A stretch of DNA of 46,619 bases. It comes from Candidatus Limnocylindrales bacterium. GTDB lineage: Bacteria > Chloroflexota > Limnocylindria > Limnocylindrales > CSP1-4. Of the stretch, positions 2-23,529 are shown piece by piece. The stretch is taken from the NCBI GenBank assembly GCA_036277775.1, contig DASUMJ010000137.1, forward strand, positions 1 through 46,619, given 5' to 3'. The notes under the pieces were generated by a model. It worked only from the letters and a program-made list of their open reading frames with translations. It was not told the origin of the DNA and searched no databases. The position numbers were made by a program, and so were the translations under genes. How positions within the stretch are numbered: the first letter of the stretch is position 1; each line of letters starts with the position of its first letter.

Positions 2-547
2 GGCGTCCGGCTCGACCGGACCTACCAGCTGAACTTCGGCGGCAACACCGACTTCCTGAACATGCTCGAGCGCGAGCGCCTCGAGTCGAAGAAGATCTCG
101 AAGACGAACGCCGTCACCTCGATGCTCGACTACGAGATGGACCCCGACGACGTCCACGTCGGCCCGAGCGACCACGTGCCGTGGCTCCTCGATCGCAAGT
201 GGTGCTACATCCGGATGGAGGGGACGACCTTCGGTGACGTGCCGCTCAACGCCGAGCTCAAGCTCGAGGTCTGGGACAGCCCCAACAGCGCCGGCGTCAT
301 CACGGACGCCATCCGCTGCCTGAAGCTGGGCCTCGACCGCGGCCTCAAGGGCACGCTCGTGGCGCCCTCGAGCTACTTCATGAAGAGCCCGCCGCAGCAG
401 ATCCACGACGACATCGCGTACAACCGCGTCGAGGCCTTCATCCGCGGCGAGGACAACGAGACGCTCGTCGGGACCGAGGCGCCGCAGAAGCGGGCCCTCC
501 GCAAGCTCGCCGGCGCGAAGGCGAAGGTCGCCGCCGCCGCGAAGTGA
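2..547 (+). CDS. ino1: myo-inositol-1-phosphate synthase, C-terminal part (5' end lies outside the window)
   Basis: Frame 2 is open from the window edge (…[28 protein letters not shown]…[14 protein letters not shown]…SSYFMKSPP). This is the conserved C-terminal region of Ino1-type inositol-1-P synthases. The stop TGA 545-547 overlaps the next gene's GTG (GTGA). Confidence 0.85.
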
Positions 548-1545
548 CGGACCGGAAGCACCGGCTCGAGTCGCCGCACCGGCGGCTCGACGCCGGGTCC
601 CGAACGTTCGAGCGGGCGGTCGTCCTTGGCTACAAGGCGTTTGCCTGGTTCATCTCGCACATCCCGCCGCAGATCCCGCAGGCGATCCTCGCCCGCGGGG
701 CCCAGCTCTCGTACCTCCTGTGGCCGACGAAGCGGCGCTGGTCGAACGCGAACTTCGGCCACGTCCTCGGGCTGCCGCCGGGCCACCCGGAGGTCCGGCG
801 GACGGCCCTCGCCGCGTATGCCGCGTACGGCCGCTACGTCGTGGAGCTGGCCCGGCTGCCGCAGCTCGCCCGCGAACATGCGGACCAGCTGGTCCCGGCC
901 TCCGACCTCGACGAGATCCACCGGATCTGGGACGAGTCGAAGGGCGGCCTGATCTTCAGCCTCGGCCACGTCGGGAACGCCGAGGCCGTGGCCGCGGGCG
1001 TCGCGTCGCGGGGCTGGCCGATCAACGTGGTCGCGGACGACTCCTCGTTCCCCGGCCTGTTCGAGGAGTTCACCCGGACCCGCGAGCAGTGGGGCGTCCA
1101 CGTCATCCCGTGGCGGAACCTCCGGGAGATCTACACGGTCCTCCGGCAGCGCGAGATGCTCGCCCTCCTCATCGACTGGGGCTATCGCCCGGACGGGATC
1201 CCGGTGAAGCTCTTCGACGCCTGGACGGCGCTGCCCGCCGGACCGGCCACGCTCGCCGCGAAGACCGGCTCGCGGATCCTGCCGATCACGATCACCCGGA
1301 ACGACGATGGCCGGACGTTCTCGATCAGCTGGGCCGACCCGATCGAGGTCACGTCGTCGGATCCGGCCGCGCTCCAGGCCGCCACGCAGCAGATGGCCGA
1401 CGCGTTCGCCGCGTCGATCGCGCCAAACCCGGCGCAGTGGTACTCGTTCAAGCCGGTCTGGCCGGCCGACCCGGCCGAGCGTGAAAGCCTCGCCCGCCGG
1501 GCAGCGGAGATCGTCGGCGGCTCGCCGCTCGCGGAGCCCGCGTGA
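544..1545 (+). CDS. lysophospholipid acyltransferase (LpxL/HtrB/PatA-like), PIM acyltransferase candidate
   Basis: 333 aa with GTGA start/stop overlap to ino1. It has an N-terminal hydrophobic segment and the HX4E acyltransferase motif 'LGHVGNAE', comparable to H(F/L)GNWE of the LpxL/PatA family. It sits between ino1 and the pimA-like gene. Confidence 0.75.
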
Positions 1546-2585
1546 CCGGCACGCCGGAGATCCCCACCCCGACGCTTGCCCAGCGGATCCGGGCGCGGGT
1601 CGTGGCCGTGCTGGCGCGACTGCTCGTCGCCCTCCCCGAGCGCCCGGTGGATGCGGCCGCGGACGTTGTGGGCGAGATCTGGTACCGGCTGGCGCCGAAC
1701 CGCGCCGCACGGGCGCGCCGGAACCTCCGGCGCGTGGCGGAGCACCTCGTCGCACGAGGGCTCGGCGGAGCGCGGATCCGGGCCGCAGCCACCCACGACC
1801 GGGCCCTCGAGCGGGTCGTCCGCCTGGCGTTCCGCCACGCCGTCCGCTACTACCTCGACATGGCGCGGCTGCCGTTCCGGACGGCGGACGACCTCGAGCG
1901 GAACCTCACGGTCGAGACCCCCGACGTCGTGGCGGACGCCTTCAGTGCGCCCCGGCCGCTGCTCTTCGTGGCGATGCACTTCGGCGCCGTCGAGTACCCG
2001 GCACTGTTCGCCGTCGCGCGGACCGGCCGGCGGGTGACCGCGCCGATGGAGACGCTCGGCGATCCGGCGCTCCAGGCCTGGATCACCGCGACCCGGGGCA
2101 GCGCGGGCGTCGACATCGTGCCGTTGCGCGACGCGCGACGGGCCCTCACGGCGTCCCTCGCCGCCGGCGGAACGGTCGGGATCGTCGCCGACCGGAACGT
2201 CGCCGGCGGCACGATCGACGTGCCCTTCTTCGGTGTTCCGGCCCCGCTGCCGATGGGCCCGGGCCTCCTGGCCGTCGAGTTCGGGCTCCCGATCTGGGTG
2301 GCCGCCGTCCGGCGATCGCGCGGCGGCCGATACCGGGGCCAGCTCCGGCGCGTCGATCCGCCGGCGGACGGGACGCGTCGCGCCCGCCTGGCCGCGACGA
2401 TGGCGGGCATGGCCGCGGCGATGGAGGAGGCCATCGCCCCGGCGCCCGAGCAGTGGTGGTCCGCCTTCGCGCCGGTCTGGCCGGACCTGGACCCGGAGGC
2501 CCGGGAGGGCAGCGGCCGGCTCGAGCCTCGCGCCGCCGCGCCGTCCGGATCTCCGGCCGCCTCCACGGCCGAGGCCGCGCGATGA
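1542..2585 (+). CDS. second LpxL/HtrB/PatA-like acyltransferase (tandem paralog)
   Basis: 347 aa with GTGA overlap to the upstream gene. It has the same family architecture and the motif 'AMHFGAVE'. The C-terminal 'APEQWWSAFAPVWPD' parallels '[15 protein letters not shown]' in the paralog. Confidence 0.75.
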   Translation: MTGTPEIPTPTLAQRIRARVVAVLARLLVALPERPVDAAADVVGEIWYRLAPNRAARARRNLRRVAEHLVARGLGGARIRAAATHDRALERVVRLAFRHAVRYYLDMARLPFRTADDLERNLTVETPDVVADAFSAPRPLLFVAMHFGAVEYPALFAVARTGRRVTAPMETLGDPALQAWITATRGSAGVDIVPLRDARRALTASLAAGGTVGIVADRNVAGGTIDVPFFGVPAPLPMGPGLLAVEFGLPIWVAAVRRSRGGRYRGQLRRVDPPADGTRRARLAATMAGMAAAMEEAIAPAPEQWWSAFAPVWPDLDPEAREGSGRLEPRAAAPSGSPAASTAEAAR

Positions 2586-3361
2586 CCGACCGCCTCGGCC
2601 GGGCCGATCTCCACATCCACACCCTCGCCTCGGACGGCACGGCGGGCGTGCTCGAGATCCTCGACCACGTCGAGGCCGCCACCGACCTCGACGTCATCGC
2701 GATCACCGACCACGAGCGGATCGATGCCGCGATCGCCGCCCGCTCGATCGCGATCGATCGCGGGCTCCGCGTCGAGGTCGTCGTCGGCGAGGAGATCACG
2801 ACGCTCGGCGGCCACCTCCTCGGGCTGTGGCTCGAGACCCGGGTCCGCCCGTTCCGATCGCTCCGCTCGACGATCGCCGCGATCCACGACCAGGGAGGGA
2901 TCGCGATTCCCGCCCACCCGCTCGTCCCGTATCCGCTCTGCGCCCAGGGTTTCGTGCTCCGGCGGCTCGCCGCCGACGAGCCGCGCTACCGTCCCGACGC
3001 GATCGAGGCGTTCAACCCGACGACGCTCGGGCGGCCGTGGCACGGCCGGGTCGTGGCGTTCGCGGACGAGCTGGGACTGTCGAAGGTCGGCAACTCGGAT
3101 GCCCATGCGCTCGCCGCGATCGGATCGGGCTGGTCGACGTTCCCGGGCCGGACCGCGGAGGACGTCCGGGCTGCGATCCTCGCCGGCACGACGCACCACC
3201 ACGGCACGTTCCACGGGACGACCGCCCAGCTCGGGACGTTCCGGGACCAGCTCCGGAAGTACGGCCGGGATGCGCGGGCGAACCTCGGTGGCCGGATCCG
3301 GCGCGACGGCACGGGCCGCGACCTCGGCTACCCGGTCCCGGCCGGCGAGGAGCGGCGGTGA
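2582..3361 (+). CDS. PHP-domain metal-dependent phosphoesterase
   Basis: The real gene is the last 259 aa of track ORF 1307-3361. ATG 2582 overlaps the upstream stop (ATGA). The N-terminus 'ADLHIHTLASDGT…VIAITDHERID…IPAHP…NSDAH' matches the PHP His/Asp metal-ligand pattern. Confidence 0.8.
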   Translation: MTDRLGRADLHIHTLASDGTAGVLEILDHVEAATDLDVIAITDHERIDAAIAARSIAIDRGLRVEVVVGEEITTLGGHLLGLWLETRVRPFRSLRSTIAAIHDQGGIAIPAHPLVPYPLCAQGFVLRRLAADEPRYRPDAIEAFNPTTLGRPWHGRVVAFADELGLSKVGNSDAHALAAIGSGWSTFPGRTAEDVRAAILAGTTHHHGTFHGTTAQLGTFRDQLRKYGRDARANLGGRIRRDGTGRDLGYPVPAGEERR

Positions 3362-4560
3362 AGATCGGGCTCGTGACGCCGTACGTCTACCCGCTGCCGG
3401 GCGGGGTGAACCAGCACGTCCGGTACCTCTACGAGAACCTCCGCCTGCGCGGCCATGACGTCCGGATCCTCACCAGCTCGCATGGCCTCCAGCGGGCGTC
3501 CGAGGGCGACGTCATCCGGATCGGCAAGGGCTTCTCGATGCCGACGAACGGCTCGGTCGGCACGGTGACGCTCTCGCCGCGCTACCTGTCGCAGGTCCGC
3601 GACGTCCTGGAGCGCGAGCAGTTCGACCTCCTCCACTTCCACGAGCCGTTCGTGCCGTTCCTGTCGCTCATCGTCCTGCGGCTCTCGACGAGCGTGAACG
3701 TCGCGACCTTCCACGCCTACGGCGGGTTCTCGCCGGCCTACGAGTTCGGCTCGAAGGTCATGGGCTCGTACGCCCGGCGACTCCACGGCCGGATCGCGGT
3801 CTCCGCCGCGGCGCGCCACTTCATCGACCGCTTCTTCCCCGGCGACTACAAGGTCATCCCGAACGGCGTCGACGTCGCCCGGTTCGACCGGGCCGTCCCG
3901 ATCGCCCGGTGGCAGGACGGGACGCGGAACATCCTGTTCGTCGGGCGGTTCGAGCCGCGCAAGGGCCTCCTGGACCTCCTGAAGGCCTACCGGATCCTCC
4001 GGAAGACCGGCTGTCCGTGCCGGCTCCTCGTCGTCGGCGGCGGGCCGCAGGAGCGCGAGGCCCGGCGCTACGTGATGACCCGCCGGATGGGCGGCGTGGA
4101 GTTCCTGGGCCGGGTCTCGGACGAGGAGCGCGACGCGCTGTTCAAGACGGCCGACGTCTACGTCTCGCCGGCCACCGGTCGGGAATCGTTCGGGATCGTG
4201 CTGCTCGAGGCCATGGCCGCGGGGACGGCGATCGTGTGCAGCGACATCCACGGCTACAAGGGCGTCGTCCGGCGCGACCGCGACGCGCTCCTCGTGCCGC
4301 CCCGGGAACCGAAGGCGTTGGCGGCCGCGATCGGGCGGCTCATCGCCGACGACGCGCTGCGGACCCGGATGGCGGCCTCCGGGATCCAGCGGGCCCAGGA
4401 GTACAGCTGGGAGCGAGTGACGGCGAAGGTCGAGGACTACTACGGCTTCGTCATCCGGCGGCTCGAGGCCCAGGGGGCGCTGCCGCCGGGCTTCCGGGCC
4501 GAGGTCCCGCCGCCGGCTCGCGTCCCTGTCGCGGCGGAGCCGGCCGTCCCGGTGGCCTGA
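3358..4560 (+). CDS. pimA: GT4 glycosyltransferase, phosphatidylinositol alpha-mannosyltransferase-like
   Basis: GTG 3358 overlaps the PHP stop (GTGA). 'KIGLVTPYVYPLPGGVNQHV…HFHEP…IPNGVDVARF…FVGRFEPRKG…ESFGIVLLEAMAAGTAIV' is colinear with mycobacterial PimA as I recall it, including the EX7E region. The ino1 and acyltransferase context agrees. Confidence 0.8.
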   Translation: MKIGLVTPYVYPLPGGVNQHVRYLYENLRLRGHDVRILTSSHGLQRASEGDVIRIGKGFSMPTNGSVGTVTLSPRYLSQVRDVLEREQFDLLHFHEPFVPFLSLIVLRLSTSVNVATFHAYGGFSPAYEFGSKVMGSYARRLHGRIAVSAAARHFIDRFFPGDYKVIPNGVDVARFDRAVPIARWQDGTRNILFVGRFEPRKGLLDLLKAYRILRKTGCPCRLLVVGGGPQEREARRYVMTRRMGGVEFLGRVSDEERDALFKTADVYVSPATGRESFGIVLLEAMAAGTAIVCSDIHGYKGVVRRDRDALLVPPREPKALAAAIGRLIADDALRTRMAASGIQRAQEYSWERVTAKVEDYYGFVIRRLEAQGALPPGFRAEVPPPARVPVAAEPAVPVA

Positions 4561-4610
4561 TCAGGCCTGGGCGTCTGATCGGGCCCGGGCTTCTGATCAG
4601 GCCCGGGCGA
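4557..4610. repeat. 3 x 18-bp tandem repeat spanning two convergent stop codons
   Basis: The units are CTGATCAGGCCTGGGCGT / CTGATCGGGCCCGGGCTT / CTGATCAGGCCCGGGCGA. The array contains the pimA-like stop (4558-4560) and the giant GT-C gene stop (4597-4599, - strand). Each unit is internally palindromic (TGATCA, GGGCCC). Confidence 0.8.
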
Positions 4611-7600
4611 CGTCGGTCCCCGGCGCGTCCGGTCCGGGCGGGCCCGGGAGGTCGGAGCGGTCCGGGCGGGGCGCCTCCGTGCCGAGGTACGCCTGCTCCG
4701 CGAGCGTGATCCGCCAGACCCAGGCGGCGTATCCGACCGCCACGCAGACCGCGGCCAGCGTCACGAGGAGGAGTGCCGGGCCGGTGTCGATGAGCGACGG
4801 CCCGGCGACGCTCCGGTCGATCGTGCTGACCGGGAACTGGAACGGATAGACGTAGGTCGGGAGCAGGCCCTGGTAGGCGTTCGAGAGGGCGCTCGGCAGC
4901 GGCAGCGCGGCGAAGTTCGGGTACCAGAGGAAGAACCACGCGGCGATCGCCACGACCGCCCCGACGACGAACCGCCGGGCATCGCGCGCGGTCGCGACGA
5001 ACGCGGCGACGGGCAGCAGCGCGAGCGTCACGACGAGGGCGATCGGCTCGACCGGGATGTTCGCGGCCTTGATCCGGGCGGTCTCGTCGAGGAAGACCGA
5101 CGCCACGACGAAGGCCAGGCTCACGCCGAGGGCGGTCAACGCGGCCATGCCGAGGCGGCCGCCGATCCCCCGGCCGGATCCCCCGCCGCCCGGTCCGTCC
5201 TCGGCCTCCGCGGCGAGCGACAGCAGCAGCCGGACGAGGAGGAGGACGCCGACGCCGACGACGACCGCGATCCCGAGGGCGCGATCCGTCAGGACGAAGT
5301 CGGGGATCAGCGTCGGGCAGGCGCGGGAGTCGGGGTTCACGTCGGTCACCCGGACGAACCCGCAGAGCGGCCGGTGGAAGAGCCACAGCGTCGTCGGTGC
5401 CATGACCGCCACGGCGGCCGCGAGGCGGGCGAGGAGCCACGTCCGCCGGGAGGCGCCGCGCCACAGCTCCGACAGGAAGTAGGCAAGGGCGAGGAACAGG
5501 AACGGCAGGCTCGTGTAGTAGTGGTACTGGAAGGCGGCGCGGTCGATCCGCGACCAGGCGATCCACTGGCAGGCGAAGCCGATCGCGATGAGCGCCAGGC
5601 CGGCGTTGCGCCGCACGAACGCCTGCCACGCGACGAAGGCCATCGCGGGGATCGCGAGCCACCACGCGACGAGGTTGCCGGCGTCGTAGATCGCCGCGCT
5701 CGTCCCCCCGGCGAACGACTCCTGGTAGAACCAGACGGGCTTGAAGTCGAAGGCCCAGGCCCACCACGGCGACGACGCCGCATGGGCCGCGCTCAGGGTG
5801 TTGTGGTAGCGGTACATGCTCTGGGTCAGGTCCCAGAGCGTCTGGCCGGTGTGGCCCGCCGGGAACGCCTCGACGATCCGGTGGTCCTCCATGAAGGCCC
5901 ACGGCAGGTACGAGGCGACGTAGAGCCCGAGCGGCAGGACGACGAGGCAGAGGGCGATCCAGACCAGCGGCAGCCCGAAGCCGGCGCCCGGCCTGAGCCA
6001 GCCCTCCGGAGCCCCGGCCGGCGGCTCCAGGAGCGATGCCGGATCGTCCGCCGGCGGCGGCGCGGCCATGGGGCCGAATCCCCATCGCCCGACGATCGCG
6101 AAGACCGTGTACGCGACCGCGCCGAGGACCACGAGGGCGAAGGCGAGCTCCTGGGGGGTGAAGGCGACCGGCCCGAGGACGACCGGCGTGCCGGCCCGGC
6201 CGAGCGCCAGGGCCGCGAGGAAGACGGCCCCGCCGAGGACCGGCGGCCCGACGACCGCGAGCCGCTGCTCCTCCCACGTCCAGGCCACGGGATGGAGGAC
6301 GTTCGCCACGACCGCGACGAGCGTCAGCCCGACCATGATCGCGAGGAACAGGTAGTTGCCGCCGGATTCGCCCTCCGGGACCGAGATCGCGAGGTAGCCG
6401 AGGGCTGTCGTGAGGACGACGAGCCCGCCGATGAGCAGCACCCGGCCGAGGGCGCTGCGGGCCAGCACGAGGATCCCGAGGGCGCCGATGGCGTAGGCCG
6501 CGACCCACTTCGCGGCGAGCGCGAACCCGAGGAAGAAGCCGATCGCGGGCATCCCGAGCGCGAACGCCAGCCACCGGCGCCGGCCGCCGCCCGCGGTCCG
6601 CCAGAGCGCCGCGAAGATCGTGTACGCGGCCACGATCCCCAGGCCGACGTACGCGTCGTTCATGCCGATCCGGCTCTGGGCGAAGAGCATCCCGTCGAGG
6701 GCCACGATCGCGGCGAGGAAGACGGCGACCTCGCGTCGCCGGAAGAGGATCCGGGCGAGGACGTAGAGCAGCAGCGCCATGAGGACGCCAGCGATCACCC
6801 CGGGCAGTCGCCAGGCGAACGCGTGCTGCCCCACGTCGATCGTCGCCACGGAACCGTCCGCGGCGAGGGCGAGGATCTGCTGTCGATCCGAGCTCGGGTA
6901 GCGCTGGGCGTCGTCCATGACGAGTGCGGCGGGCTCGAGCGGGAGGGCCGCGTCCGCATAGATCGCCGCGTCGGCATAGATCGCATTCGCGTGCGGCTCG
7001 ATCACGTAGATCGTCGCGGCCGACCCGTCGGGCGTGGAGCCGAGGGCATGGACCATCTGGCTCGCGAGGTCGTAGCCGACCCAGCCGGCCTCCGTGCCGG
7101 GCAGGACGAGCGTCGTCTCGTGGGTCGGCTCGCCGCCGCTGCCCGGCGCAACGATCGTGGCGACGCGGGGCCCGTCCGCCGTCTCCACCCCGACGTAGAG
7201 CCGGTCCTTGTCGAGGTTCGTGACGAACGCCAGCCCGACCGCCGCCCCGCCGAGCTCGATCGTCGCGGTCGATTCGGCCGTTGTGGTGTCCAGGAAGACG
7301 ACGCCGCCCGCCGTAGCCAAGGCCACGGTTGCCGCCCCGGCATCGGCGATCTGGGCAACCTCCGCGAGCTCGAGTCGCCCGACCTCCGTCGCGGCCGTCG
7401 CGTCGAGGAGGACGACCGGCTCGGCGGCTCCGGGTGTGGCGGCCTCGAGGACGGCGGCAATGGACGTACCGTCGGACGAGACGTGGAGGAGCCGAACCGG
7501 GCCGTCGAGGGTCGCGAACGCGCGTGCGCCCGGCTCCGCGGCCGTGCCGGTCCAACGGGCGTCGTCGAGCGGGCGCGTCGGGATGATCCGGACATCGCCG

Positions 7601-9906
7601 GAGCTGGTGCCGACCACGACGCGATGGGTCACCCGGTCGATGGCGAGGGTGACCGCGCCGGGGATCTCGACCCGGAGCTCGATCCGCCGCGTCGCGAGGT
7701 CGTAGGCGCGGACCTCGTCGCCGGTCGCGACCCACAGCCGGTCGCCGGCGATCCGGCTGTTGGACCGGGCGTCGTCCCAGCGCGGCTCGATCGCGGCGTC
7801 CCGGACCCCGACCCCGAGGTCGCTCGTGGCGGCCGTCCGGTCCTCGCCCCAGGCGATGATCCCGAGGGCCATCCCGTACTTGGCAAGGTGGGGATGGGTC
7901 CACTCGTAGATGTTGTGCGAGATCCCGTAGCGCCAGAACTGGAGGAACTCGGTCGCGGTCCGCGGGTGGTAGACCTCGTCGAAGTGCATCTGGTACGGCT
8001 CGCCGAGCCGCCAGATCCGGCCGGTGAGGAGGACCGCGGCAAGGACGACGATCATCCAGACGTCGAGCCGGTCGAGGCGGCCGCCACCCTCGCGCTCCAG
8101 GCCCGCGGTGCGGTCCGGCCGGATCGGCCGCTCCGAGAGGCGGGCACGGAGCCAGCCGATGAAGCCGATCTCGCCCGAGGACGGTCGGCTCTCCCAGACC
8201 GGGAACCGCTCGACGTCCGCGACACGATGTGCCGGAGGCGGCGTCGGTGGCAGGCGACTGGCGAGGTCGTTGCCCGAGCTGGACACGATGACCCCGGCTC
8301 CCACCGCGGCCGGCTCGACGCCGTGGTCGCCCGGGTGTTCCAGCTCGGGGTCCCGGTCCCTCCCGACGTCAACCGCCAGCCGGTCGTCCGGGCCGGCGGT
8401 CGCGGCGATCTCCCGGCCGAGCCGGGCGCTCGCCGATCGGCGCAGCTCGGACAGTGCGAACAGGAACACGAGGACCTGCGTCGACGCCGCGATCGCCACC
8501 CCGGTCCACGAGCCGAGGTCCGGCCCGATCCCGAGCCAGTCGTCGATGCCGGGGTTGTTCGGGTAGAGCGTCGTGAGGACGAAGTACATGTTCGCGAGCG
8601 TCGCCAGGCTGGAGGCGACGTACGCGATCGTCCAGCGGACCGAGACGGCCGCGAGGATGGCCCCGATCGCGACGAGCGGGAAGAGGTATCGCTCGTGGAC
8701 CCGCGTCGGCACCACGAAGAAGGCCAGGGCGAGGATCGCGAGGCCCACGAGCATGGTCCGGCGGTCGGGTCGCCGGGCGACGAGCAGGCTCACCGCGATG
8801 AAGACCGCGAACGTCAGGACCGTCCCGACGACGACCGCCGGGATCGCCCCGAACGTCACGGCCTCCCCGCAGCGGGTCGCGGTGTCGCCGCTCGTGACCA
8901 CCATGTCGCAGACCCATGCCCGGTTCTGGGCGATCCCGCTGCCCCCGAGCGTGACGAGGGCCCAGGGGTTCCAGGCGTTCACCGACACGTACGGATAGCC
9001 GCCGGCGGTCTTGAAGATCTGCTCGACGAGGCCGCCCGGCAGCCCGAGGCCGAACGGCAGCGACAGGAGGATCGCCGGCAGCAGGCCCGCCAGCCCGGTC
9101 GTGACGATGCGGATCGGCCCTCGCGTCCGCGCCTCCCAGTCGGTCGTCGATCGGCGCCGCTCGGGCGGGGCCTCGTCGCCGTAGCCGCCGTCCGGCCGGA
9201 GGGCCCGCCGGATCGTGACGGCCGCCACGATCGGGACGAGGATCCCGAGCTGGGGCTTGATCATCGCGCCGACGACGGTGAGGACGGCAGCCCGCTCGGG
9301 CCGGTCCCGCCACAGCTCCCGCAGCCCCAGGAGCAGGAAGATCACCCCGACCGAGTCGACCTGGCCCCAGATCGCGCTGTCGAGCCAGGTGATCGGGTTG
9401 ACCGCCACGAGGATCGCCCCGAGACGCGCCGCCCAGCGCCCGGCACCGAGCTCCAGGGCCATCGACCAGACGAGATAGGCGAGGACAACGTCGCCGACGA
9501 TCGGCGGGATCTTGATCAGGTCACCGACGCCACCGAAGACCGCGCCGACGGCCCCGACGAGCCACAGCACGTAGAGGTACCCGGGCGTGTAGTCGTGGAG
9601 GAAGTCCCGCTCGTAGAACCCGTGGAGGCCCTCGTGGAACAGGTTCGACGCCCAGAACTGGAAGGCGCCGATGTCGTTGGCAAAGCCGGAGCCGGGCAGG
9701 AGGTATGCGATGATGGCGCGGAAGGTGAGGGCCAGCGCGAGGAGGATGAGGATGCCGCCGACGTCGTCCCGCGTCCCGGACCGCGTCGCGCTCCCGCCCC
9801 GAACGGGCTCACCCGACACGGGGCCTGTCAACCGGTCCGGCCTCCTGCACGAGCGATGAGGTGGAGGGCAGGGTAGCACAGGGCCATGCCTCGACCGGGA
9901 TCGCAC
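4597..9906 (-). CDS. giant fused membrane glycosyltransferase: N-terminal GT-C module + Pmt (GT39)-like module carrying a beta-propeller-like insert
   Basis: Uninterrupted 1769-aa ORF.
- aa ~50-485: multi-TM module with 'DYTPGYLYVLW' and 'VHERYLFPL' (ALG6/8- or Gpi18-like GT-C motifs).
- aa 613-685: Pmt signature 'HFDEVYHPRTA…YEWTHPHLAKYG'.
- aa ~686-1028: soluble repeat region.
- aa 1029 onward: the Pmt continues with 'AFAWRLPGV…' and a PMT_4TMC-like 'WWAWAFDFKPVWFY…FQYHYYTSLPF'.
The start is uncertain: GTG 9906 overlaps the divergent gene, and the alternative is GTG 9819. Confidence 0.8.
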   Translation of the reverse strand: MRSRSRHGPVLPCPPPHRSCRRPDRLTGPVSGEPVRGGSATRSGTRDDVGGILILLALALTFRAIIAYLLPGSGFANDIGAFQFWASNLFHEGLHGFYERDFLHDYTPGYLYVLWLVGAVGAVFGGVGDLIKIPPIVGDVVLAYLVWSMALELGAGRWAARLGAILVAVNPITWLDSAIWGQVDSVGVIFLLLGLRELWRDRPERAAVLTVVGAMIKPQLGILVPIVAAVTIRRALRPDGGYGDEAPPERRRSTTDWEARTRGPIRIVTTGLAGLLPAILLSLPFGLGLPGGLVEQIFKTAGGYPYVSVNAWNPWALVTLGGSGIAQNRAWVCDMVVTSGDTATRCGEAVTFGAIPAVVVGTVLTFAVFIAVSLLVARRPDRRTMLVGLAILALAFFVVPTRVHERYLFPLVAIGAILAAVSVRWTIAYVASSLATLANMYFVLTTLYPNNPGIDDWLGIGPDLGSWTGVAIAASTQVLVFLFALSELRRSASARLGREIAATAGPDDRLAVDVGRDRDPELEHPGDHGVEPAAVGAGVIVSSSGNDLASRLPPTPPPAHRVADVERFPVWESRPSSGEIGFIGWLRARLSERPIRPDRTAGLEREGGGRLDRLDVWMIVVLAAVLLTGRIWRLGEPYQMHFDEVYHPRTATEFLQFWRYGISHNIYEWTHPHLAKYGMALGIIAWGEDRTAATSDLGVGVRDAAIEPRWDDARSNSRIAGDRLWVATGDEVRAYDLATRRIELRVEIPGAVTLAIDRVTHRVVVGTSSGDVRIIPTRPLDDARWTGTAAEPGARAFATLDGPVRLLHVSSDGTSIAAVLEAATPGAAEPVVLLDATAATEVGRLELAEVAQIADAGAATVALATAGGVVFLDTTTAESTATIELGGAAVGLAFVTNLDKDRLYVGVETADGPRVATIVAPGSGGEPTHETTLVLPGTEAGWVGYDLASQMVHALGSTPDGSAATIYVIEPHANAIYADAAIYADAALPLEPAALVMDDAQRYPSSDRQQILALAADGSVATIDVGQHAFAWRLPGVIAGVLMALLLYVLARILFRRREVAVFLAAIVALDGMLFAQSRIGMNDAYVGLGIVAAYTIFAALWRTAGGGRRRWLAFALGMPAIGFFLGFALAAKWVAAYAIGALGILVLARSALGRVLLIGGLVVLTTALGYLAISVPEGESGGNYLFLAIMVGLTLVAVVANVLHPVAWTWEEQRLAVVGPPVLGGAVFLAALALGRAGTPVVLGPVAFTPQELAFALVVLGAVAYTVFAIVGRWGFGPMAAPPPADDPASLLEPPAGAPEGWLRPGAGFGLPLVWIALCLVVLPLGLYVASYLPWAFMEDHRIVEAFPAGHTGQTLWDLTQSMYRYHNTLSAAHAASSPWWAWAFDFKPVWFYQESFAGGTSAAIYDAGNLVAWWLAIPAMAFVAWQAFVRRNAGLALIAIGFACQWIAWSRIDRAAFQYHYYTSLPFLFLALAYFLSELWRGASRRTWLLARLAAAVAVMAPTTLWLFHRPLCGFVRVTDVNPDSRACPTLIPDFVLTDRALGIAVVVGVGVLLLVRLLLSLAAEAEDGPGGGGSGRGIGGRLGMAALTALGVSLAFVVASVFLDETARIKAANIPVEPIALVVTLALLPVAAFVATARDARRFVVGAVVAIAAWFFLWYPNFAALPLPSALSNAYQGLLPTYVYPFQFPVSTIDRSVAGPSLIDTGPALLLVTLAAVCVAVGYAAWVWRITLAEQAYLGTEAPRPDRSDLPGPPGPDAPGTDVARA

Positions 9907-11396
9907 GAACGGATCCGCACTGGCTCGACCTCCTCCCCTCGGTCCTCATCGGGCTCGGCCTCGTGGCGGCGGCGCTCGCCGCCTACTGGCTGCCCGGATC
10001 GGTCCGCTACTACAACCACTTCGTCTGGCAGGCGCTCGCCTTCCTCGACGGCAGAGCCGCGATCACCTGGCCCGTCCCGGGGAACGACTTCTTCCAGGAC
10101 GTCCTGCCACTGCGTGATGCCGACGGCAATCTGACGGGTTACGGGCTCCTGCCGTTCCCACCGCTGCCGGCGATCGTCCTCATGCCGGTCGTCGCGATCT
10201 TCGGGCTCGCGACCGACGAGCGGGCCGTCTCCGTCGTGATCGGGGCGATCGACGTCGGGATCTGCTGGTGGGCGCTCGGACGGCTCCCGGTCACGCGGCT
10301 CGTCCGCCTCGCGGTGACGATCTTCTTCGGCTTCGGGACGGTGTTCTGGTATGCGGCCGGCCTCGGCACGACCTGGTTCCTCGCCCACGTCGTGGCCCTG
10401 GCACCGCTGCTCCTGGCCATCGGGCTCGCGCTCCGCGCGGATCGGACGCTGATCGCCGACGCGGAGACGGCGATGGCCGTCGATGACGACGACGCCGACG
10501 CGCTCGAGCCGCGACCGGAGCTCGAGGCCGGCGACGAGGAGCCGCCCAGGACGACGGTCGCCGGCGTGATCCGTGACGCCGTCCTGGAGACGCTCGACGG
10601 CCTCCGGTCACCGCTCGGCTTCATCGACGGGCGCCAGTTCGTCGTCGGGTTCCTGTTCGGGCTTGCCTGCACGGCCCGGCTGACGATCGTCTTCGGGGCG
10701 CCGTTCTTCATGCTCGTCGGCGGCGGCGGCTCGCTGGCCCGGCGGTCGGTCTCGGCCGGGCTCGGGGCGATCATCCCGGTCGGGCTGCTCCTCGTCTACA
10801 ACCTCGCGACGACCGGGCACTTCTTCCACCCCGGTTACGAGTACCTCTACCAGCTCGAGGCCGTCGGCTACCGGGCGCTCGGGTACAACCCCGACTGGGC
10901 GATCGAGGACGTCCGCTATCTGCCCCAGAACCTCGCGATCATGTTCGCCTCGCTGCCGGCGTTCTTCCCGGAGTTCGTGCCGGGCGGCCTCGGTCCCGGC
11001 CGCGCGCTGTGCACCGAGCCGGGCGCGGTCCGCGGCCTCTTCGACCTCGCCTGCCCGATCGCGATGCCGCGCGACATCGGGATGAGCATCATCCTGACGA
11101 GCCCGGCCTACCTGTACATCGTGCCGGCGCTCGCCAGGTTCGGGCAGTCGCGGCTGGTCGCGGGGGCGGCCCTCGCGATCGCCGCGATCGCGATCGTCAA
11201 CCTCATGCACTTCAGCCAGGGCTGGGTCCAGTTCGGCTATCGGTTCAGCAACGACTTCGTCGCGTTCGCCCTGCCGCTCGTCGCGATCGGGATCGCCCGG
11301 CGCGGCGGCGTCGGGCTGCTCGCCGCCTGGCTCGTCGGGGTGTCCGTGGCGATCAACTTCTGGGGCGTCACGTGGGGCAACCTCCTGGGATGGTGA
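9861..11396 (+). CDS. GT-C fold membrane glycosyltransferase (ArnT/PMT_2-like)
   Basis: 511 aa and polytopic, with at least 10 hydrophobic segments. There is an early periplasmic-loop acidic motif region ('FLDGRAAITWPVPGNDFFQDVLPLRDADG'). GTG 9861 is the only canonical start ahead of TM1. The stop overlaps the next gene's start by 7 nt. Confidence 0.7.
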   Translation: MEGRVAQGHASTGIARTDPHWLDLLPSVLIGLGLVAAALAAYWLPGSVRYYNHFVWQALAFLDGRAAITWPVPGNDFFQDVLPLRDADGNLTGYGLLPFPPLPAIVLMPVVAIFGLATDERAVSVVIGAIDVGICWWALGRLPVTRLVRLAVTIFFGFGTVFWYAAGLGTTWFLAHVVALAPLLLAIGLALRADRTLIADAETAMAVDDDDADALEPRPELEAGDEEPPRTTVAGVIRDAVLETLDGLRSPLGFIDGRQFVVGFLFGLACTARLTIVFGAPFFMLVGGGGSLARRSVSAGLGAIIPVGLLLVYNLATTGHFFHPGYEYLYQLEAVGYRALGYNPDWAIEDVRYLPQNLAIMFASLPAFFPEFVPGGLGPGRALCTEPGAVRGLFDLACPIAMPRDIGMSIILTSPAYLYIVPALARFGQSRLVAGAALAIAAIAIVNLMHFSQGWVQFGYRFSNDFVAFALPLVAIGIARRGGVGLLAAWLVGVSVAINFWGVTWGNLLGW

Positions 11397-13015
11397 CGTC
11401 GGCGGGCAGTCCGCTCAGCCGCGTCCGGGCCGCGTTGCCGTGGCTCGTCCCGCCGGTCGTCGTCGCGCTCGCGGTCGTCGTGATCGTCAGCCCCGGGCTG
11501 ATGCCGGACGTGGGCTTCTGGGACACCGGCGAGTTCCAGACGGTCGCCCCGATCCTCGGCACCGCCCACCCGACCGGCTACCCCACGTACGTGATCCTCG
11601 GGTTCGTCGTCAACGTCCTGCTCACGCCGCTCGGCGAGCCGGCCTTCCGGATGAACGTCTTCTCGCTGCTCTGCGTCGCCGTGGCCGCCGCGGCGACCGT
11701 CCGGCTCGTGATCCGGCTCACCGGCTCGGTGCCGGTGGCGATGGCGGCCGGCCTCGGGCTGGCCCTGACGCCGATCGCCTGGGCGATCGCGACACGGGCC
11801 GACCCGCACTCGCTCCACCTCGCGTTCGTGGGGCTGCTCCTCGCGGTCCTCGTCCGCTGGGAGCACGGCCGCCGCGACGGCGAGCCGCGAGCGGATCGCT
11901 GGCTCGTCCTGGCCGCCGCGACCTTCGGGCTGTCGGCCGGGAACCACTCGCTGACCCTGCTGCTCGCGCTCCCGATCGGCCTGTACGTCCTGGCGGTCCA
12001 TCCCGGGATCATCCGGCGGCCCCGGCTCGTCGCGGCCTGCGCGGCCGTCCTCGTCGGGAGCCTCGTCCTCGTCTACCTCGAGCTGCCGCTCCGGGCCGGC
12101 CCGTTCAGGGCGGAGCTCGTCTACGCGAAGCCCGAGACGTGGGACGGGTTCTGGTACGTCGCCCTCGCCGAGCAGTTCCGAGGCTCGCTCCACGACCCGC
12201 TGGGCGAGCTCCCCCGGAAGCTCGGTGACGTCGCGTCGCTCGCCGTCACCCAGTTCGGGCTCCTCGCCCCGGCGATCGTCGTGGCGTTCATCGCCACGGC
12301 GGTCCGGCACCCGCGATACGCCCTCCTCACCGGGTCGGCGATGATCATCACGGTGCTCTTCAATGCCTCGTACTCCAACGCCGACATCCAGCGCTACTAC
12401 CTCGGACCGGCGCTCTGGGCCTGGACCTGGCTCGGCATCCTGGGCGGCGCGATCGTCGAGGGAGTCAGCGGTCGGACGTGGGCGGTCGAGGCCGGTGCCG
12501 CGGCCGGGGCGGAGACGGATGCCGACGCCGCGGTTGCCGCCCCCGGGCTGCCCGCGGGGCCGCTCGGGGCGCTCGTCCCGACCGTGCTCGCCGCGGTCAT
12601 CGGCGTCGTGCTCCTCGTCCCGGCCGTGGCCGAGTTCGACAGCCGCCGGCTCCATGCCGACCGGAGCGGGGACACGGCGGCGCGGCGCTGGGTCACCTCG
12701 GCGCTCGACCAGATCGAGGAGGGCGCGGTCGTCGTCAGCTGGTGGAGCACCTCGACGACGCTCTGGTACGCACAATATGTCGATGGACTCCGGCGCGACC
12801 TGTTCGTCGTCGACGATCGGACGCGGCTCGACCTGGGGTATGGAGAAGCGACCGACGTGATTGCGCGGTTCTACGGCACCCGGCCCGTCTACGTGATCCG
12901 GGCGAACAACCACGACCTCGGGCTGGTCCTCGCGCGCTATGACCTCGAGCCGCTGCCGGAGGGACCGGCGACGAACGTCTACCGCGTGCTCGGTCCCCGG
13001 GGCGGCTCGACGTGA
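11390..13015 (+). CDS. DUF2723 / TMEM260-like GT-C glycosyltransferase
   Basis: The real start is ATG 11390, inside track ORF 11009-13015. 'FWDTGEFQTVAPILGTAHPTGYPTY' matches the DUF2723 signature (WD-x-GE…HPPGYP). The protein has a multi-TM core and a C-terminal soluble domain. Confidence 0.75.
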   Translation: MVTSAGSPLSRVRAALPWLVPPVVVALAVVVIVSPGLMPDVGFWDTGEFQTVAPILGTAHPTGYPTYVILGFVVNVLLTPLGEPAFRMNVFSLLCVAVAAAATVRLVIRLTGSVPVAMAAGLGLALTPIAWAIATRADPHSLHLAFVGLLLAVLVRWEHGRRDGEPRADRWLVLAAATFGLSAGNHSLTLLLALPIGLYVLAVHPGIIRRPRLVAACAAVLVGSLVLVYLELPLRAGPFRAELVYAKPETWDGFWYVALAEQFRGSLHDPLGELPRKLGDVASLAVTQFGLLAPAIVVAFIATAVRHPRYALLTGSAMIITVLFNASYSNADIQRYYLGPALWAWTWLGILGGAIVEGVSGRTWAVEAGAAAGAETDADAAVAAPGLPAGPLGALVPTVLAAVIGVVLLVPAVAEFDSRRLHADRSGDTAARRWVTSALDQIEEGAVVVSWWSTSTTLWYAQYVDGLRRDLFVVDDRTRLDLGYGEATDVIARFYGTRPVYVIRANNHDLGLVLARYDLEPLPEGPATNVYRVLGPRGGST

Positions 13016-13779
13016 CGGACGGCGGCCCGGCCCGCGTCCCGGCGCTCTCGTATTTCTTCCCCGCCCACAACGAGGAGGCCAACCTTCGCGGCCTCGTCGA
13101 GGAGGCCCTCGCGACCCTGCCCGACCTGGCCGAGACGTTCGAGGTGATCATCGTCGACGACGGGTCGCGCGATGCCACGCCGCGGATCGCGGACGAGCTC
13201 GCCGCGGGCGATCCCCGGGTCCGGGCGGTCCATCACCCGAAGAACCGCGGCTACGGTGCAGCCCTCCGCTCCGGCTTCGCGGCTGCTCGCCACGACCTCA
13301 TCGCCTTCACGGACGGGGACCGCCAGTTCAGGGTCGCCGACATCGGGCGCCTCACCGCCCGCTTCGCCGCGGGCGACACCGAGGTCGTCGTCGGGTACCG
13401 GATCAAGCGGGCCGACCCGCTCGTCCGGACGCTCTACGCGAAGACGTACCGGCTCGCGAACCGGATCTTCTTCGGGCTCCGGGTGACCGACGTCGACTGC
13501 GCCTGCAAGCTCTTCCGGCGCGACGCGCTGCGGGGGATCAGCGTCGAGTCGGGCGGGGCGTTCTTCTCGGCCGAGCTCCTCATCAAGCTCCGGGCCGCGG
13601 GCCGGGGCGTCGTCGAGGTGGGGGTGCCGCACTACCCGCGGACCGCCGGGTCGCCGACCGGCGCGAAGCCCCAGGTCGTGCTCCGCGCGATGCGCGACTT
13701 CTGGCTGCTGCGGCTCCGCCTCTGGGCCGCCCCGCGACGTGCGCTGTCCCGCGGCGAGCCGATCCTCCCGGAGGGCTGA
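13012..13779 (+). CDS. GT2 polyprenyl-phosphate sugar synthase (Ppm1/DPM1-like)
   Basis: 255 aa with GTGA overlap to the DUF2723 gene. 'SYFFPAHNEE…VIIVDDGSRD…KNRGYGAALRSG…FTDGD' is a GT-A fold with the DXD pattern. No C-terminal TM is present (DPM1/Ppm1 type). Confidence 0.8.
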   Translation: MTDGGPARVPALSYFFPAHNEEANLRGLVEEALATLPDLAETFEVIIVDDGSRDATPRIADELAAGDPRVRAVHHPKNRGYGAALRSGFAAARHDLIAFTDGDRQFRVADIGRLTARFAAGDTEVVVGYRIKRADPLVRTLYAKTYRLANRIFFGLRVTDVDCACKLFRRDALRGISVESGGAFFSAELLIKLRAAGRGVVEVGVPHYPRTAGSPTGAKPQVVLRAMRDFWLLRLRLWAAPRRALSRGEPILPEG

Positions 13780-19089: not shown

Positions 19090-19175
19090 GAGCTGGGGGC
19101 CGGGGCCGAAGCTCGCGGCCAGGGCCCCGTAGCCGCGGAGGTCCGCGAGCCGGATCGAGCCGAGCGTGGCCGGTC

Positions 19176-22267: not shown

Positions 22268-22660
22268 TCGTCGATGACGGCTCTGCTTCGGGGGGCTGCG
22301 ATGGATCGTACGGCTGGATTCGACTCGAGCCGACGCGTCGAGCCTTGGGAACGCCGGGATGCTCGGAACGACGGCTGCTGGGACCGGCCTCCGGTCGGTC
22401 CCGGGTCCCTCGACGCGGGCGCCGCGGGGGGCCGTCCGGGGTGCCGAGGGTCCCGAAAGATAGCACCGCGCCGGAACCCTCGCAAGGCGATTCTGCGATA
22501 CTCCCCAGGAGTATTGTCGCTCGGGTCTCCGACGGACTCCGGGCCGATGTCGGTCGCGGCCGCCGGGCCTCCGGGCCGGGTGCGTCCCGACATCCGCTCG
22601 TGCAGGCTCGCGGCGCCGGCCGGCGCTGCCGCGCGGGGCCTTCGCGGGCGCGCGAGCGGG

Positions 22661-22942: not shown

Positions 22943-22977
22943 CGGACGGTCGCGGCCGGCTTCGACCGCGGCTGGTG

Positions 22978-23513: not shown

Positions 23514-23529
23514 ACGAGGTCCCCACCGC

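Follow-up and report, generated by a model that had tools for sequence, protein, structure and literature searches.

The closest described systems to the protein studied here are two groups of GT-C glycosyltransferases, further GT-C enzymes with accessory domains, seven-bladed propellers and one lipid pathway. ALG6/ALG8, ALG3, GPI mannosyltransferase I (PIG-M/Gpi14) and mycobacterial PimE (GT87) share one fold; PIG-U has the same fold type and lacks transferase activity. Family GT39 comprises the protein O-mannosyltransferases, such as yeast Pmt1, Pmt2 and Pmt4 and the actinobacterial Pmt (e.g. M. tuberculosis Rv1002c). These enzymes function as dimers, and to our knowledge every characterized GT39/PMT member transfers mannose to Ser/Thr of proteins. 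A soluble domain is absent from the bacterial Pmt proteins. Other GT-C enzymes, viz. TMTC1-4 and TMEM260 (TPR), EmbA/B/C and AftD (carbohydrate-binding modules) and PglB/STT3 (periplasmic domain), have in common a GT-C core with an outward soluble domain presumed to bind the acceptor. The mycobacterial phosphatidylinositol (PI) mannoside pathway is represented by the PgsA1-PatA-PimA operon, Ino1, PimE and Ppm1. In Pmt1-Pmt2, the DE motif is located in the first loop, LL1, on the ER-lumen side, and the MIR β-trefoil of eukaryotic PMTs is located in LL4; MIR and TPR domains are outward domains of GT-C enzymes with a presumed acceptor-engaging role (PMC7759382).

The window analyzed here (46,619 nucleotides, contig DASUMJ010000137.1 of an uncultured Candidatus Limnocylindrales bacterium) contains a minus-strand gene in which modules related to both groups are fused, with the following features:

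4597..9906, minus strand: maximal ORF, 1769 codons plus stop
8437..9774, minus strand: N-module (head 1), aa 45-490, polytopic, predicted ALG6/PimE/PIG-M-like (GT-C class B-type) fold
9577-9594, minus strand: DYTPGY, containing D105
8686-8697, minus strand: H404-E-R-Y
8107..8436, minus strand: linker, aa 491-600, low-complexity and poorly conserved
7849..8106, minus strand: first part of the PMT module (head 2), aa 601-686, with TMH1 (about aa 613-634) and the beginning of LL1, an outward loop
7966-7983, minus strand: FDEVYH, containing D643-E644, the invariant DE motif of catalytic type
6829..7848, minus strand: predicted seven-bladed β-propeller inserted in LL1, aa 687-1026
6947..6984, minus strand: 18-nt tandem duplication found by TRF (2.1 copies, 95% match), encoding AIYADA twice in a propeller loop
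5317..6828, minus strand: PMT core, aa 1027-1530, from TMH2 onward, with the PMT_4TMC region and without a MIR domain
4600..5316, minus strand: C-terminal extension specific to the lineage, aa 1531-1769, with about five additional TM helices in the model

Because the window has a GC content of 72%, the length of the ORF alone was uninformative. Long spurious ORFs arise in such DNA, and two further frames overlap the same region, a 1500-aa ORF on the opposite strand (5374..9876, plus strand) and another minus-strand frame open for 1150 aa. From codon ~30 to the stop, GC3 in the frame of the gene was 0.84-1.00 (about 0.95), with no change of frame across the linker (0.84-0.94), and the Pfam PMT and PMT_4TMC matches fall in this frame. 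Homologues of full length (>120, 1690-1838 aa, 55-77% identity) were found in metagenome-assembled genomes (MAGs) of Chloroflexota/Limnocylindria. The ORF is one genuine gene, as the initial annotation had read it.

In 69 of the 77 informative related loci, module matches obtained by tblastn showed the N- and C-modules joined in one frame with no intervening stop, and the layout of two modules plus insert is conserved across hundreds of related genomes. The linker itself had a mean identity of 24% with 21% gaps in the alignment, compared with 62-74% identity for the flanking modules, and the gap between the module matches varied from 72 to 207 aa in relatives. The modules lie in different frames in a few relatives, as would be expected if the long ORF were a chance frame or if a frameshift introduced by sequencing or assembly had joined two genes. 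These exceptions comprised one locus with an assembly gap, three MFD-series MAGs in which long open frames overlap, suggesting indels, and two loci (L060, L064) with a clean GTGA stop/start overlap in the linker that look like natural splits. With GC3 continuous through the linker and the fusion recurring in 69 independent assemblies and >120 protein clusters, an artefactual ORF has a negligible probability and was rejected. In a further relative (L083) the two modules are separate genes; since split versions exist, the N- and C-modules are autonomous. None of the family models and structure libraries searched covered the combined layout of fusion and propeller.

The GTG at 9906 that opens the maximal ORF overlaps a divergent ORF whose start lies at 9861, and GC3 becomes coding-type only at about codon 30. 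The true start is therefore probably the GTG at 9817-9819 (codon 30; VSGEPV...), giving a protein of about 1740 aa, the length of its closest homologues.

The initial annotation had assigned the N-module to an ALG6/8- or Gpi18-type GT-C, which held at the level of the fold and failed at the level of a Pfam family. No Pfam model exceeded its threshold in this module (GT87 19.9 bits and Alg6_Alg8 16.7 bits, cut-off 25 for both), the sub-threshold matches across the family were spread over three Pfam families, and a sequence-level profile search of the PDB gave no match. The AlphaFold (AF2) model (pLDDT 88.4, pTM 0.90) matched yeast ALG6 (6snh) in Foldseek with TM 0.69/0.68 (E 3e-8), GPI mannosyltransferase I with a target-normalized TM of 0.72, ALG3 with TM 0.69 and PimE with TM 0.61; 9wno, 9dm5 and 9s6r were among the structure matches. 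On the basis of this model, the N-module is predicted to have an ALG6/PimE-type GT-C fold (TM 0.6-0.7 to these enzymes). Unlike them, it has no sequence-level family membership and is fused to a PMT-like module.

An alignment of 52 full-length sequences (51 homologues) revealed D78, D105, D139, D184, K217-P-Q and H404-E-R-Y as invariant in the N-module. The motifs DYTPGY (aa 105-110) and HERYLFP (aa 404-410) were found where the initial annotation had placed them. As in the ALG6-type class, the first outward loop contains an invariant Asp, that of DYTPGY, and an HE(R/K) motif occurs where the Alg6_Alg8 profile aligns. PIG-U chains were among the structure matches of head 1, and one homologue matches Pfam PIG-U. 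Head 1 might thus be a PIG-U-like lipid-binding scaffold, or the propeller a mere spacer or oligomerization domain that could aid assembly of a dimeric PMT; that one part of the protein is non-catalytic in this way appears improbable. Head 1 retains 56 invariant positions in sequences down to 39% overall identity, including the loop residues D105, D184, K217 and H404-E405, which argues against a scaffold.

The PMT-like nature of the C-module was confirmed by Pfam matches to PMT (aa 1029-1149, 42.1 bits, cut-off 22.7) and PMT_4TMC (aa 1355-1514, 40.1 bits, cut-off 32.4), both above the gathering scores in 25/25 homologues. The core also gave profile matches to Pmt4 and Pmt1 structures, to which its helix order aligns. 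The first part of the module (model helices at fragment residues 13-34, 46-60 and 74-86) aligned to positions 2-81 of the PMT profile and to Pmt4 from residue 61. Its HFDEVYH (aa 641-647) and EWTHPHLAKYG (aa 668-678) and the resuming AFAWRLPGV (aa 1029-1037) were located as annotated. Head 2 thus shares with GT39 the PMT and PMT_4TMC regions, the DE motif in the first outward loop and an HPxLxK juxtamembrane helix (HPHLAKY). It scored 28.8 bits against a cut-off of 800 with the NCBIfam equivalog for bacterial Pmt and is therefore not an orthologue of the characterized actinobacterial Pmt. The core has two invariant Cys, C1515 and C1530, in an outward loop. The C-terminal extension, which had no Pfam match, is conserved (53% identity, 14 invariant positions) and contains a conserved outward loop (YPN..LPLP..QG.LPTY.YPFQF). 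Head 2 differs from GT39 in this five-helix extension, in the second GT-C fused to it, and in a 340-residue insert in LL1; eukaryotic PMTs instead have their MIR domain in LL4.

Removal of the insert in silico yielded a contiguous PMT match (profile 2-198) with an increase from 42.1 to 56.6 bits, as expected if it interrupts the Pmt domain. The insert-free profile aligned with C. thermophilum Pmt4 across FDEV and HPPLGK and on into TMH2, and the insert therefore lies in LL1, between the DE motif and TMH2. The insert was modeled confidently as all-β with 27 strands at a pLDDT of about 90-95, and the top 50 Foldseek matches were all seven-bladed propellers, with target-normalized TM values of mostly 0.62-0.79 against single-domain propeller chains. 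The earlier proposal of a YVTN/WD40-like repeat fold was thus borne out, and all seven strand/turn strings quoted for it were found between aa 722 and 1025. According to the model, the insert is a seven-bladed propeller.

YVTN/PQQ-like propellers such as E. coli YncE and the Methanosarcina S-layer protein 1L0Q have the seven blades in common with the insert (target-normalized TM about 0.7), and profile searches gave weak matches to both (E 1.3e-4 and 1.9e-3, respectively). In contrast to these, the insert had no match to the Pfam repeat models searched against the window protein and was found only within this glycosyltransferase family. It is carried by 265 clusters at 50% identity, and no more, in 1.84 billion; the 55 listed representatives of at least 700 aa all align to this protein, in nearly every case past the insert. 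Among the clusters searched, the propeller thus appears confined to this family, where it is never lost and has invariant charged residues, which argues against a mere spacer. The AIYADA duplication is specific to this genome (the consensus of the relatives has one copy), and pLDDT dropped below 50 near it, at aa 975-978.

The model including the insert was globally confident (pTM 0.81), and the propeller lies between the juxtamembrane helix and TMH2. The side of the membrane it faces had been left open because the preceding helix is short. Its location in LL1, the length of that helix (only 13 residues) and the confident model point to an outward orientation, and from homology and topology the propeller is predicted to be extracytoplasmic. 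K+R counts showed only a modest bias (21 in 158 residues of the assigned inside loops versus 10 in 127 outside).

The gene is flanked by two operons:

62..4560, plus strand: convergent operon
62-547, plus strand: inositol-1-phosphate synthase, C-terminal part; the gene continues past the window start
544-1545 and 1542-2585, plus strand: two PatA-like acyltransferases
2582-3361, plus strand: PHP protein
3358-4560, plus strand: PimA homologue (E 3e-62 to PimA 2GEJ/4N9W)
9861..13779, plus strand: divergent operon
9861-11396, plus strand: polytopic protein, 10-11 TM, no assigned family
about 11390-13015, plus strand: TMEM260-like GT-C
13012-13779, plus strand: GT2 related to ArnC and Dol-P-Man synthase

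Adjacency to the convergent operon was conserved in 54-70 of 55-71 loci and adjacency to the divergent operon in 62/66, 59/63 and 61/61 loci. Gene order was retained in about 95-100% of related loci with the protein down to 45% identity; seen within one class, this synteny could partly stem from shared ancestry rather than function. A conserved neighboring ectoprotein has a tail rich in Ser, Pro, Ala and Thr, as is typical of O-glycosylated regions.

The PimA, PatA-like and inositol-phosphate synthase genes match those of the mycobacterial pathway, as do the GT2, the likely maker of the lipid-phosphate-sugar donor, and a CDP-alcohol phosphatidyltransferase present at the locus in relatives. 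The N-module gene adjoins early PI-mannoside genes, as expected of a PimE step. The system differs from the mycobacterial one in its Chloroflexota rather than actinobacterial host, in acyltransferases whose best NCBIfam match, the PIM acyltransferase, lies below the equivalog cut-off, and in outward steps that would be performed by a fused two-module protein.

Both heads could act on one PI-anchored, lipomannan-like lipoglycan, the PMT head being repurposed from protein to glycan and the propeller serving as a glycan-binding clamp or ruler, in the manner of the EmbC and AftD carbohydrate-binding modules. The adjoining PimA/PatA/inositol-phosphate synthase operon in nearly all relatives fits this reading, as do two further GT-C-like membrane proteins at the locus, as in multi-step lipoglycan pathways, the usual link of enzyme fusions to consecutive steps on one substrate, and the distance of head 2 from characterized bacterial Pmt. 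We nevertheless consider it rather unlikely, as head 2 retains the PMT-specific DE motif and PMT_4TMC region of a family characterized solely on protein Ser/Thr, and Pfam and profile searches matched the propeller to no glycan-binding family.

Membership of head 2 in the PMT family would suit a role of both heads in protein O-mannosylation, in which the propeller captures exported proteins, head 2 places the first O-mannose on their Ser/Thr, head 1 extends the glycan by a second transfer that depends on a lipid-phosphate sugar, and the PI operon is a mere neighbor. The TMEM260-like gene, a second one resembling protein O-mannosyltransferases, and the presumably donor-making GT2 of the divergent operon and the tail of the ectoprotein point the same way. 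This alternative is unlikely: it leaves the tight, conserved PimA/PatA adjacency unexplained, and we know of no ALG6/PimE/PIG-M-fold enzyme that modifies a protein-linked glycan.

We favor, at somewhat better than even probability, a two-headed GT-C with head 1 acting on a PI-anchored glycan, a propeller-bearing PMT head 2 and a shared donor. Such an enzyme would reside in the cytoplasmic membrane, probably with both catalytic loops facing outward. By analogy with every characterized enzyme of its fold, head 1 would extend a lipid-anchored glycan by one sugar, probably mannose; its acceptor would most likely be a phosphatidylinositol mannoside from the adjacent PimA/PatA-type operon. The poorly conserved tether of about 110 residues, presumably cytoplasmic, would join it to head 2 (aa 601-1769), a PMT-family module with the catalytic DE motif. 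As the propeller directly follows the DE segment and precedes TMH2, its connectivity would place it over the active site of head 2. There it would most likely select or hold the acceptor, either a segment of an exported protein or an elongating glycan, in the role of the MIR, TPR or carbohydrate-binding domains of other GT-C enzymes; in those with TPR, carbohydrate-binding or periplasmic domains the domain is C-terminal or in a later loop, unlike the β-propeller in the catalytic first loop here. The neighboring GT2 would supply a single donor pool for the two heads. We infer the identities of donor and acceptors and the role of the propeller; two sequential sugar-transfer activities and substrate recognition by the insert, as first suggested from the sequence, are plausible. 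The protein is most likely bifunctional, depends on polyprenyl-phosphate sugars and acts in a PI-glycolipid or envelope mannosylation pathway, with the acceptors presumably as proposed above.

At a G+C content of 72%, long open frames come cheaply in the window, and the region 4597-9906 also holds an ORF of 1500 aa on the plus strand and one of 1150 aa in another minus-strand frame. Three independent lines of evidence (GC3, Pfam matches and homologues) identify the 1769-codon minus-strand frame as the coding one. Its GC3 was 0.84-1.00 from approximately codon 30 to the stop, with no hand-over to another frame at any point, the low-complexity linker included, and the Pfam models PMT and PMT_4TMC exceeded their gathering scores in this frame. 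A homologue search of 5.8 billion protein clusters gave 1601 significant matches to the large protein. The best 120 of these were almost all full-length (1690-1838 aa, except for one fragment of 1478 aa), with 54-77% identity and a query coverage of mostly 95-98%. Named sources among these 120 were mostly Chloroflexota/Candidatus Limnocylindria, with a few other phylum labels, and the only product names given were 'phospholipid carrier-dependent glycosyltransferase' or 'Gpi18-like mannosyltransferase'. The single uninterrupted ORF described in the initial annotation was thus borne out, and all motif strings quoted there were found at the residues claimed. The maximal ORF starts at GTG 9906, which overlaps the divergent ORF beginning at 9861, and coding-type GC3 is missing from its first ~29 codons; therefore, the true start is likely GTG 9819 (VSGEPV...), yielding a protein of ~1740 aa. 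The start of the divergent neighbor may also lie downstream, at the next in-frame GTG (9963), because its homologues comprise 475-495 aa (611 aa in the distant locus L085) versus 511 aa here.

The distribution of the fused gene was surveyed by scanning a single genome from each GTDB species with two patterns per gene. At least 589 stretches matching the patterns were confirmed, corresponding to some 300 genes or more. Of the 80 best loci, nearly all were labeled Chloroflexota, mostly Limnocylindria, and four carried other phylum labels. In all 77 loci with sufficient upstream sequence, a match to the N-terminal module (head 1, aa 45-490) was found directly upstream of the match to the PMT-like C-terminal module (head 2, aa 601-1769), with tblastn gaps of 72-207 residues between them; both modules shared one frame without an intervening stop in 69 of the 77. 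Of eight loci flagged as exceptional, two were false alarms in which the stop marked the gene end, one contained an assembly gap, and three, all MFD-series MAGs, showed long overlapping open frames that suggest indels. Divided arrangements were seen in the remaining two (L060 and L064) and in the more distant L083:

L060, 280-300, and L064, 2225-2245 (two Limnocylindrales MAGs): split gene, with the TGA of the N-module gene lying in the linker and overlapped by the GTG of the PMT-propeller gene (GTGA)
L083, 5046-11399: split relative with two tandem stand-alone N-module paralogues in different frames, 5046-6122 and 6472-7707

Overlapping stop and start codons (GTGA) typically mark a pair of genes coupled in translation, and the arrangement in L060 and L064 looks like a natural split of this kind. 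In L083, a more distant relative (37-50% identity) with the same conserved neighborhood, the N-module paralogues are followed by an AT-rich gap of ~150 nt and a separate gene for a 1132-aa PMT-propeller protein. Thus, the fusion of two GT-C modules claimed initially is the norm in this clade, with separate polypeptides for the two modules also possible. That the large ORF is an artefact of frameshift or chance is vanishingly improbable: GC3 continuity, in-frame Pfam matches, full-length homologues, the prevalence of in-frame fusions and the exceptions examined rule it out.

The linker (aa 491-600) had a mean identity of 24% with 21% gaps, compared with 62-74% identity in the flanking modules. 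It is bordered on both flanks by Arg-rich segments, runs from the final helix of head 1 to the TMH1 of head 2, and is precisely where the natural gene splits are located. As TMH1 of PMTs begins on the cytoplasmic side, the linker is probably a flexible tether on that side of the membrane.

The assignment of the second module to the Pmt (GT39) family was confirmed by both domain models. In the intact protein, PMT (PF02366) scored 42.1 bits versus a gathering score of 22.7, with aa 1029-1149 aligning to profile positions 82-198, and PMT_4TMC (PF16192) scored 40.1 bits versus 32.4 (aa 1355-1514); both were matched in 25 of 25 homologues tested. Deletion of aa 689-1023 in silico made the PMT match contiguous over profile positions 2-198 and raised its score from 42.1 to 56.6 bits, in line with the initial claim that an insert interrupts the Pmt module. 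A profile built from eight insert-deleted sequences aligned with Chaetomium thermophilum Pmt4 (E 7.6e-6) in two stretches, one of which, though weak alone (11.7 bits), spanned TMH1, FDEV and the HPPLGK helix and reached into TMH2. From the contiguous PMT match and the Pmt4 alignment, the insert (aa 687-1026) takes the place of the short connection between the second helix of LL1, the first outward loop (TMH1-TMH2), and TMH2.

In the Pmt1-Pmt2 complex, LL1, which bears the catalytic DE motif, lies on the lumenal side of the ER membrane, and the MIR domain resides in LL4 (PMC7759382). The corresponding D643-E644 of head 2 (HFDEVYH), which aligns with FDEV of Pmt4, and much of LL1 were invariant across the aligned homologues. 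A Pfam search of the large protein detected no MIR domain in head 2, and the loop between helices aa 1308-1331 and 1402-1432 comprises only ~70 residues. Bacterial Pmt likewise has no MIR domain, and its absence rules out only the eukaryotic PMT subfamilies. Against NF058602, the NCBIfam equivalog model for bacterial Pmt, head 2 scored 28.8 bits versus a cut-off of 800. By sequence, head 2 is therefore a PMT-family member and not an orthologue of the studied bacterial Pmt: it shares the domain models and DE motif of GT39/PMT but fails the bacterial equivalog and has no eukaryotic MIR domain. Head 2 ends in a conserved element:

4600-5316, minus strand: C-terminal extension of ~240 residues after PMT_4TMC, with about five helices in the model

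This extension carries the outward-loop motif YPN..LPLP..QG.LPTY.YPFQF, and no match to it was found in Pfam, NCBIfam or PDB sequences.

The structure of aa 601-1769 was modeled with a pLDDT of 79.8 and a pTM of 0.81. The insert consisted of 27 β-strands, with a pLDDT of mostly 82-95 per ten-residue block and dips in two loops. All of the top 50 Foldseek matches in the PDB were seven-bladed propellers, among them G-beta, WDR5, Tup1, YncE and a bacterial WD40 domain; single-domain propellers aligned over ~350 columns with target-normalized TM scores of 0.62-0.79. With the C-module model as query, the list was filled by propellers, which left the membrane core unranked against PMT structures. 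The family sequence profile gave weak matches to YncE (1.3e-4) and to the YVTN S-layer propeller 1L0Q (1.9e-3). None of the Pfam repeat models WD40, YVTN and PQQ matched the window protein, for which only a THOC3 propeller appeared at E 0.13; among 25 homologues, one matched PQQ_2 and two matched an EML propeller. The proposal that aa 686-1028 adopt a repeat fold resembling YVTN/WD40 blades therefore stands on the predicted strands and the structural matches.

A search with the insert alone against 1.84 billion representatives retrieved only 265 clusters. Among the matches listed, all 55 proteins of at least 700 aa aligned to the large protein, nearly all of them beyond the insert, which rules out a propeller common to other families. 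Judged by these matches, the propeller appears private to this glycosyltransferase family. At 47% identity, it evolves faster than the membrane parts; seven of its 13 invariant positions are charged. Its conserved residues include E707, R709, D736, D985, D998 and R1008. One loop carries a local repeat:

6947-6984: in-frame 18-nt tandem duplication, 2.1 copies with 95% match, doubling AIYADA in a propeller loop

Relatives have a single AIYADA in their consensus, and model confidence dips near the duplication. No homology was detected between the propeller and the β-rich ectodomain of a neighboring 759-aa protein.

The sidedness of the propeller was deduced from its connections. The insert lies downstream of the DE motif and upstream of the helix that aligns with TMH2 of PMTs. 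The hydrophobic stretch preceding it, LAKYGMALGIIAW, forms a helix of only 13 residues in the model and is thus too short to span the membrane; if it did cross the membrane, the DE loop would be separated by the bilayer from all later conserved loops, and a PMT could not work in this way. Placing the propeller outside gathers the short Arg-rich loops FRRRE, GGRRRW, RSALGR, VRRN, RGASRR and ARDARR on one side and leaves the loops with conserved motifs, the invariant cysteines C1515/C1530 and the acidic propeller (53 D+E versus 26 K+R) on the opposite side. A positive-inside count on the DSSP helices revealed only a modest K+R bias because many arginines lie in helix ends, so the orientation rests mainly on homology to PMTs. 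Connectivity and homology together point to an extracytoplasmic propeller adjoining the active site.

For aa ~50-485, the initial annotation had suggested a GT-C enzyme of the ALG6/8 or Gpi18 type; the fold was recovered, whereas Pfam thresholds were not reached. Head 1 of the window protein scored 19.9 bits with GT87 and 16.7 bits with Alg6_Alg8, both below the cut-off of 25, and had no match in NCBIfam; at E ≤ 0.01, Alg6_Alg8 matched seven, GT87 two and PIG-U one of 25 homologues. The full-length family profile likewise had no sequence match to solved structures over the N-module region. An AlphaFold2 model based on an alignment of 42 sequences reached a pLDDT of 88.4 and a pTM of 0.90. Its top Foldseek match in the PDB was yeast ALG6 (6snh, E 3e-8, TM 0.69/0.68), and the list included GPI mannosyltransferase I (9wno, TM 0.63/0.72), ALG3 (9s6r, TM 0.58/0.69) and PimE (9dm5, TM 0.52/0.61; second values of the latter three target-normalized). 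PIG-U was also among the upper matches, and OST, PMT, ArnT and Emb enzymes ranked lower. Head 1 accordingly has the predicted fold of ALG6/PimE/PIG-M-type GT-C enzymes and belongs to a family that lacks a model of its own, a placement made by predicted structure and not by curated sequence family. It contains 56 invariant positions, including D78, D105 (DYTPGY), D139, D184, K217 and H404-E-R-Y, with D78 and D105 falling between its first two long helices. Because this invariance holds down to 39% overall identity, it argues for an active enzyme and against a scaffold; that one part of the protein is non-catalytic is very unlikely. No similarity was detected between head 1 and the neighboring 511-aa membrane protein.

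The neighborhood of the large gene comprises the following elements:

62-4560, plus strand: convergent operon with inositol-1-phosphate synthase (cut by the window start), two PatA-like acyltransferases, a PHP-domain protein and a PimA homologue
9861-13779, plus strand: divergent operon with a 511-aa protein (10-11 predicted helices), a TMEM260-like (DUF2723) GT-C and a GT2
15281-17560, minus strand: 759-aa protein with a single predicted TM helix (aa 317-335) between a faintly PP2C-like N-terminus and a β-rich C-terminal ectodomain
18019-25852: chromosomal replication origin region with recF-like, dnaN and dnaA genes (minus strand), then yidC and jag (plus strand)

The GT4 of the convergent operon matched mycobacterial PimA (4N9W/2GEJ) with E 3.3e-62 and 214 bits over residues 1-363 of 400, and this homologue adjoins the large gene in 70 of 71 loci. 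The best NCBIfam match of both acyltransferases was the PIM acyltransferase PatA, with scores of 142 and 97.5 bits, both under its cut-off of 209. In relatives, a CDP-alcohol phosphatidyltransferase is additionally present upstream. These similarities suggest that 62-4560 encodes an early phosphatidylinositol-mannoside pathway of the mycobacterial type in Chloroflexota; speculatively, the PI-phosphate phosphatase otherwise missing from it may be the PHP protein.

About 94-100% of related loci have the divergent operon beside the large gene. The closest solved relatives of its GT2 are ArnC and Dol-P-Man synthase, both makers of lipid-phosphate-sugar donors; a family search with the 511-aa protein gave no match. 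Together with both heads, this operon may bring the lipid-phosphate-sugar-dependent transferases of the locus to as many as four. The position of each gene is preserved in 54-70 of 55-71 loci, while identity of the large protein drops to 45%, and the arrangement is also retained in the split relative L083. Because all genomes belong to one class, part of this synteny may reflect inheritance. In relatives, dciA is located between recF and the gene for the 759-aa protein. The latter ends in a Ser/Pro/Ala/Thr-rich tail, also present in three related loci (L001, L002 and L085), and the conserved protein had no match in a family search; it is a candidate O-glycosylation substrate.

By analogy with characterized relatives, the GT2 would load polyprenyl phosphate with a sugar, probably mannose. 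To our knowledge, all characterized enzymes of the fold type of head 1 act on lipid-anchored glycans, and head 1 would transfer the sugar to such a glycan as an analogue of PimE or PIG-M, with an acylated PI-mannoside as putative acceptor because PimA, PatA and inositol genes adjoin. It is rather unlikely that both heads act on one PI-anchored lipoglycan. The PMT core of head 2 would glycosylate an acceptor that the propeller selects, the family default being Ser/Thr of exported proteins. That both heads serve protein O-mannosylation, one in initiation and the other in extension, is unlikely. The cytoplasmic tether would hold both heads in a 1:1 ratio close to one donor supply. We regard as reasonably probable the mechanism in which each head follows its family default, head 1 on a PI-glycolipid and head 2 on a propeller-selected acceptor, both acceptors being putative. 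A more far-reaching reading is a PI-anchored mannoglycan in Limnocylindria, PIM/lipomannan-like or GPI-like and outside Actinobacteria, whose outward-facing steps would be carried out by one two-headed GT-C 'assembly line' with a PMT core re-targeted by the propeller. This reading is doubtful; if true, a propeller in the catalytic loop would be a new way to program acceptor specificity in GT-C enzymes.

The Pfam, NCBIfam and PDB libraries contained no propeller spliced into LL1, no GT-C fusion of two fold classes and no such C-terminal extension. Head 1, the propeller and the extension are covered by no model in Pfam or NCBIfam, and public annotation is only generic. An incomplete search of the literature on Limnocylindria and on Chloroflexi together with phosphatidylinositol mannoside found nothing relevant, and a Limnocylindria paper (Nat Commun 2026) does not mention mannosyl, inositol or glycosyltransferase. 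On the basis of the family and structure libraries, the architecture is provisionally considered undescribed.

GT-C enzymes make N-glycans, GPI anchors, O-mannosyl proteins and the mycobacterial cell envelope, and their choice of acceptor is poorly understood. Limnocylindria are an abundant, largely uncultured class of Chloroflexota. Their genomes are small, with ~69% GC (PMC10608941). The family described here is robust, widespread in this class and mechanistically suggestive, with its chemistry putative. It offers a natural example of an acceptor-facing domain that has another fold and lies within the catalytic loop, and of two GT-C heads of different fold classes on one tethered chain, for which the natural split versions are usable as controls. 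The conserved neighborhood suggests a mycobacterial-type PI-mannoside pathway in Chloroflexota, which would extend the known occurrence of these envelope lipids, and it supplies a concrete, testable gene set.
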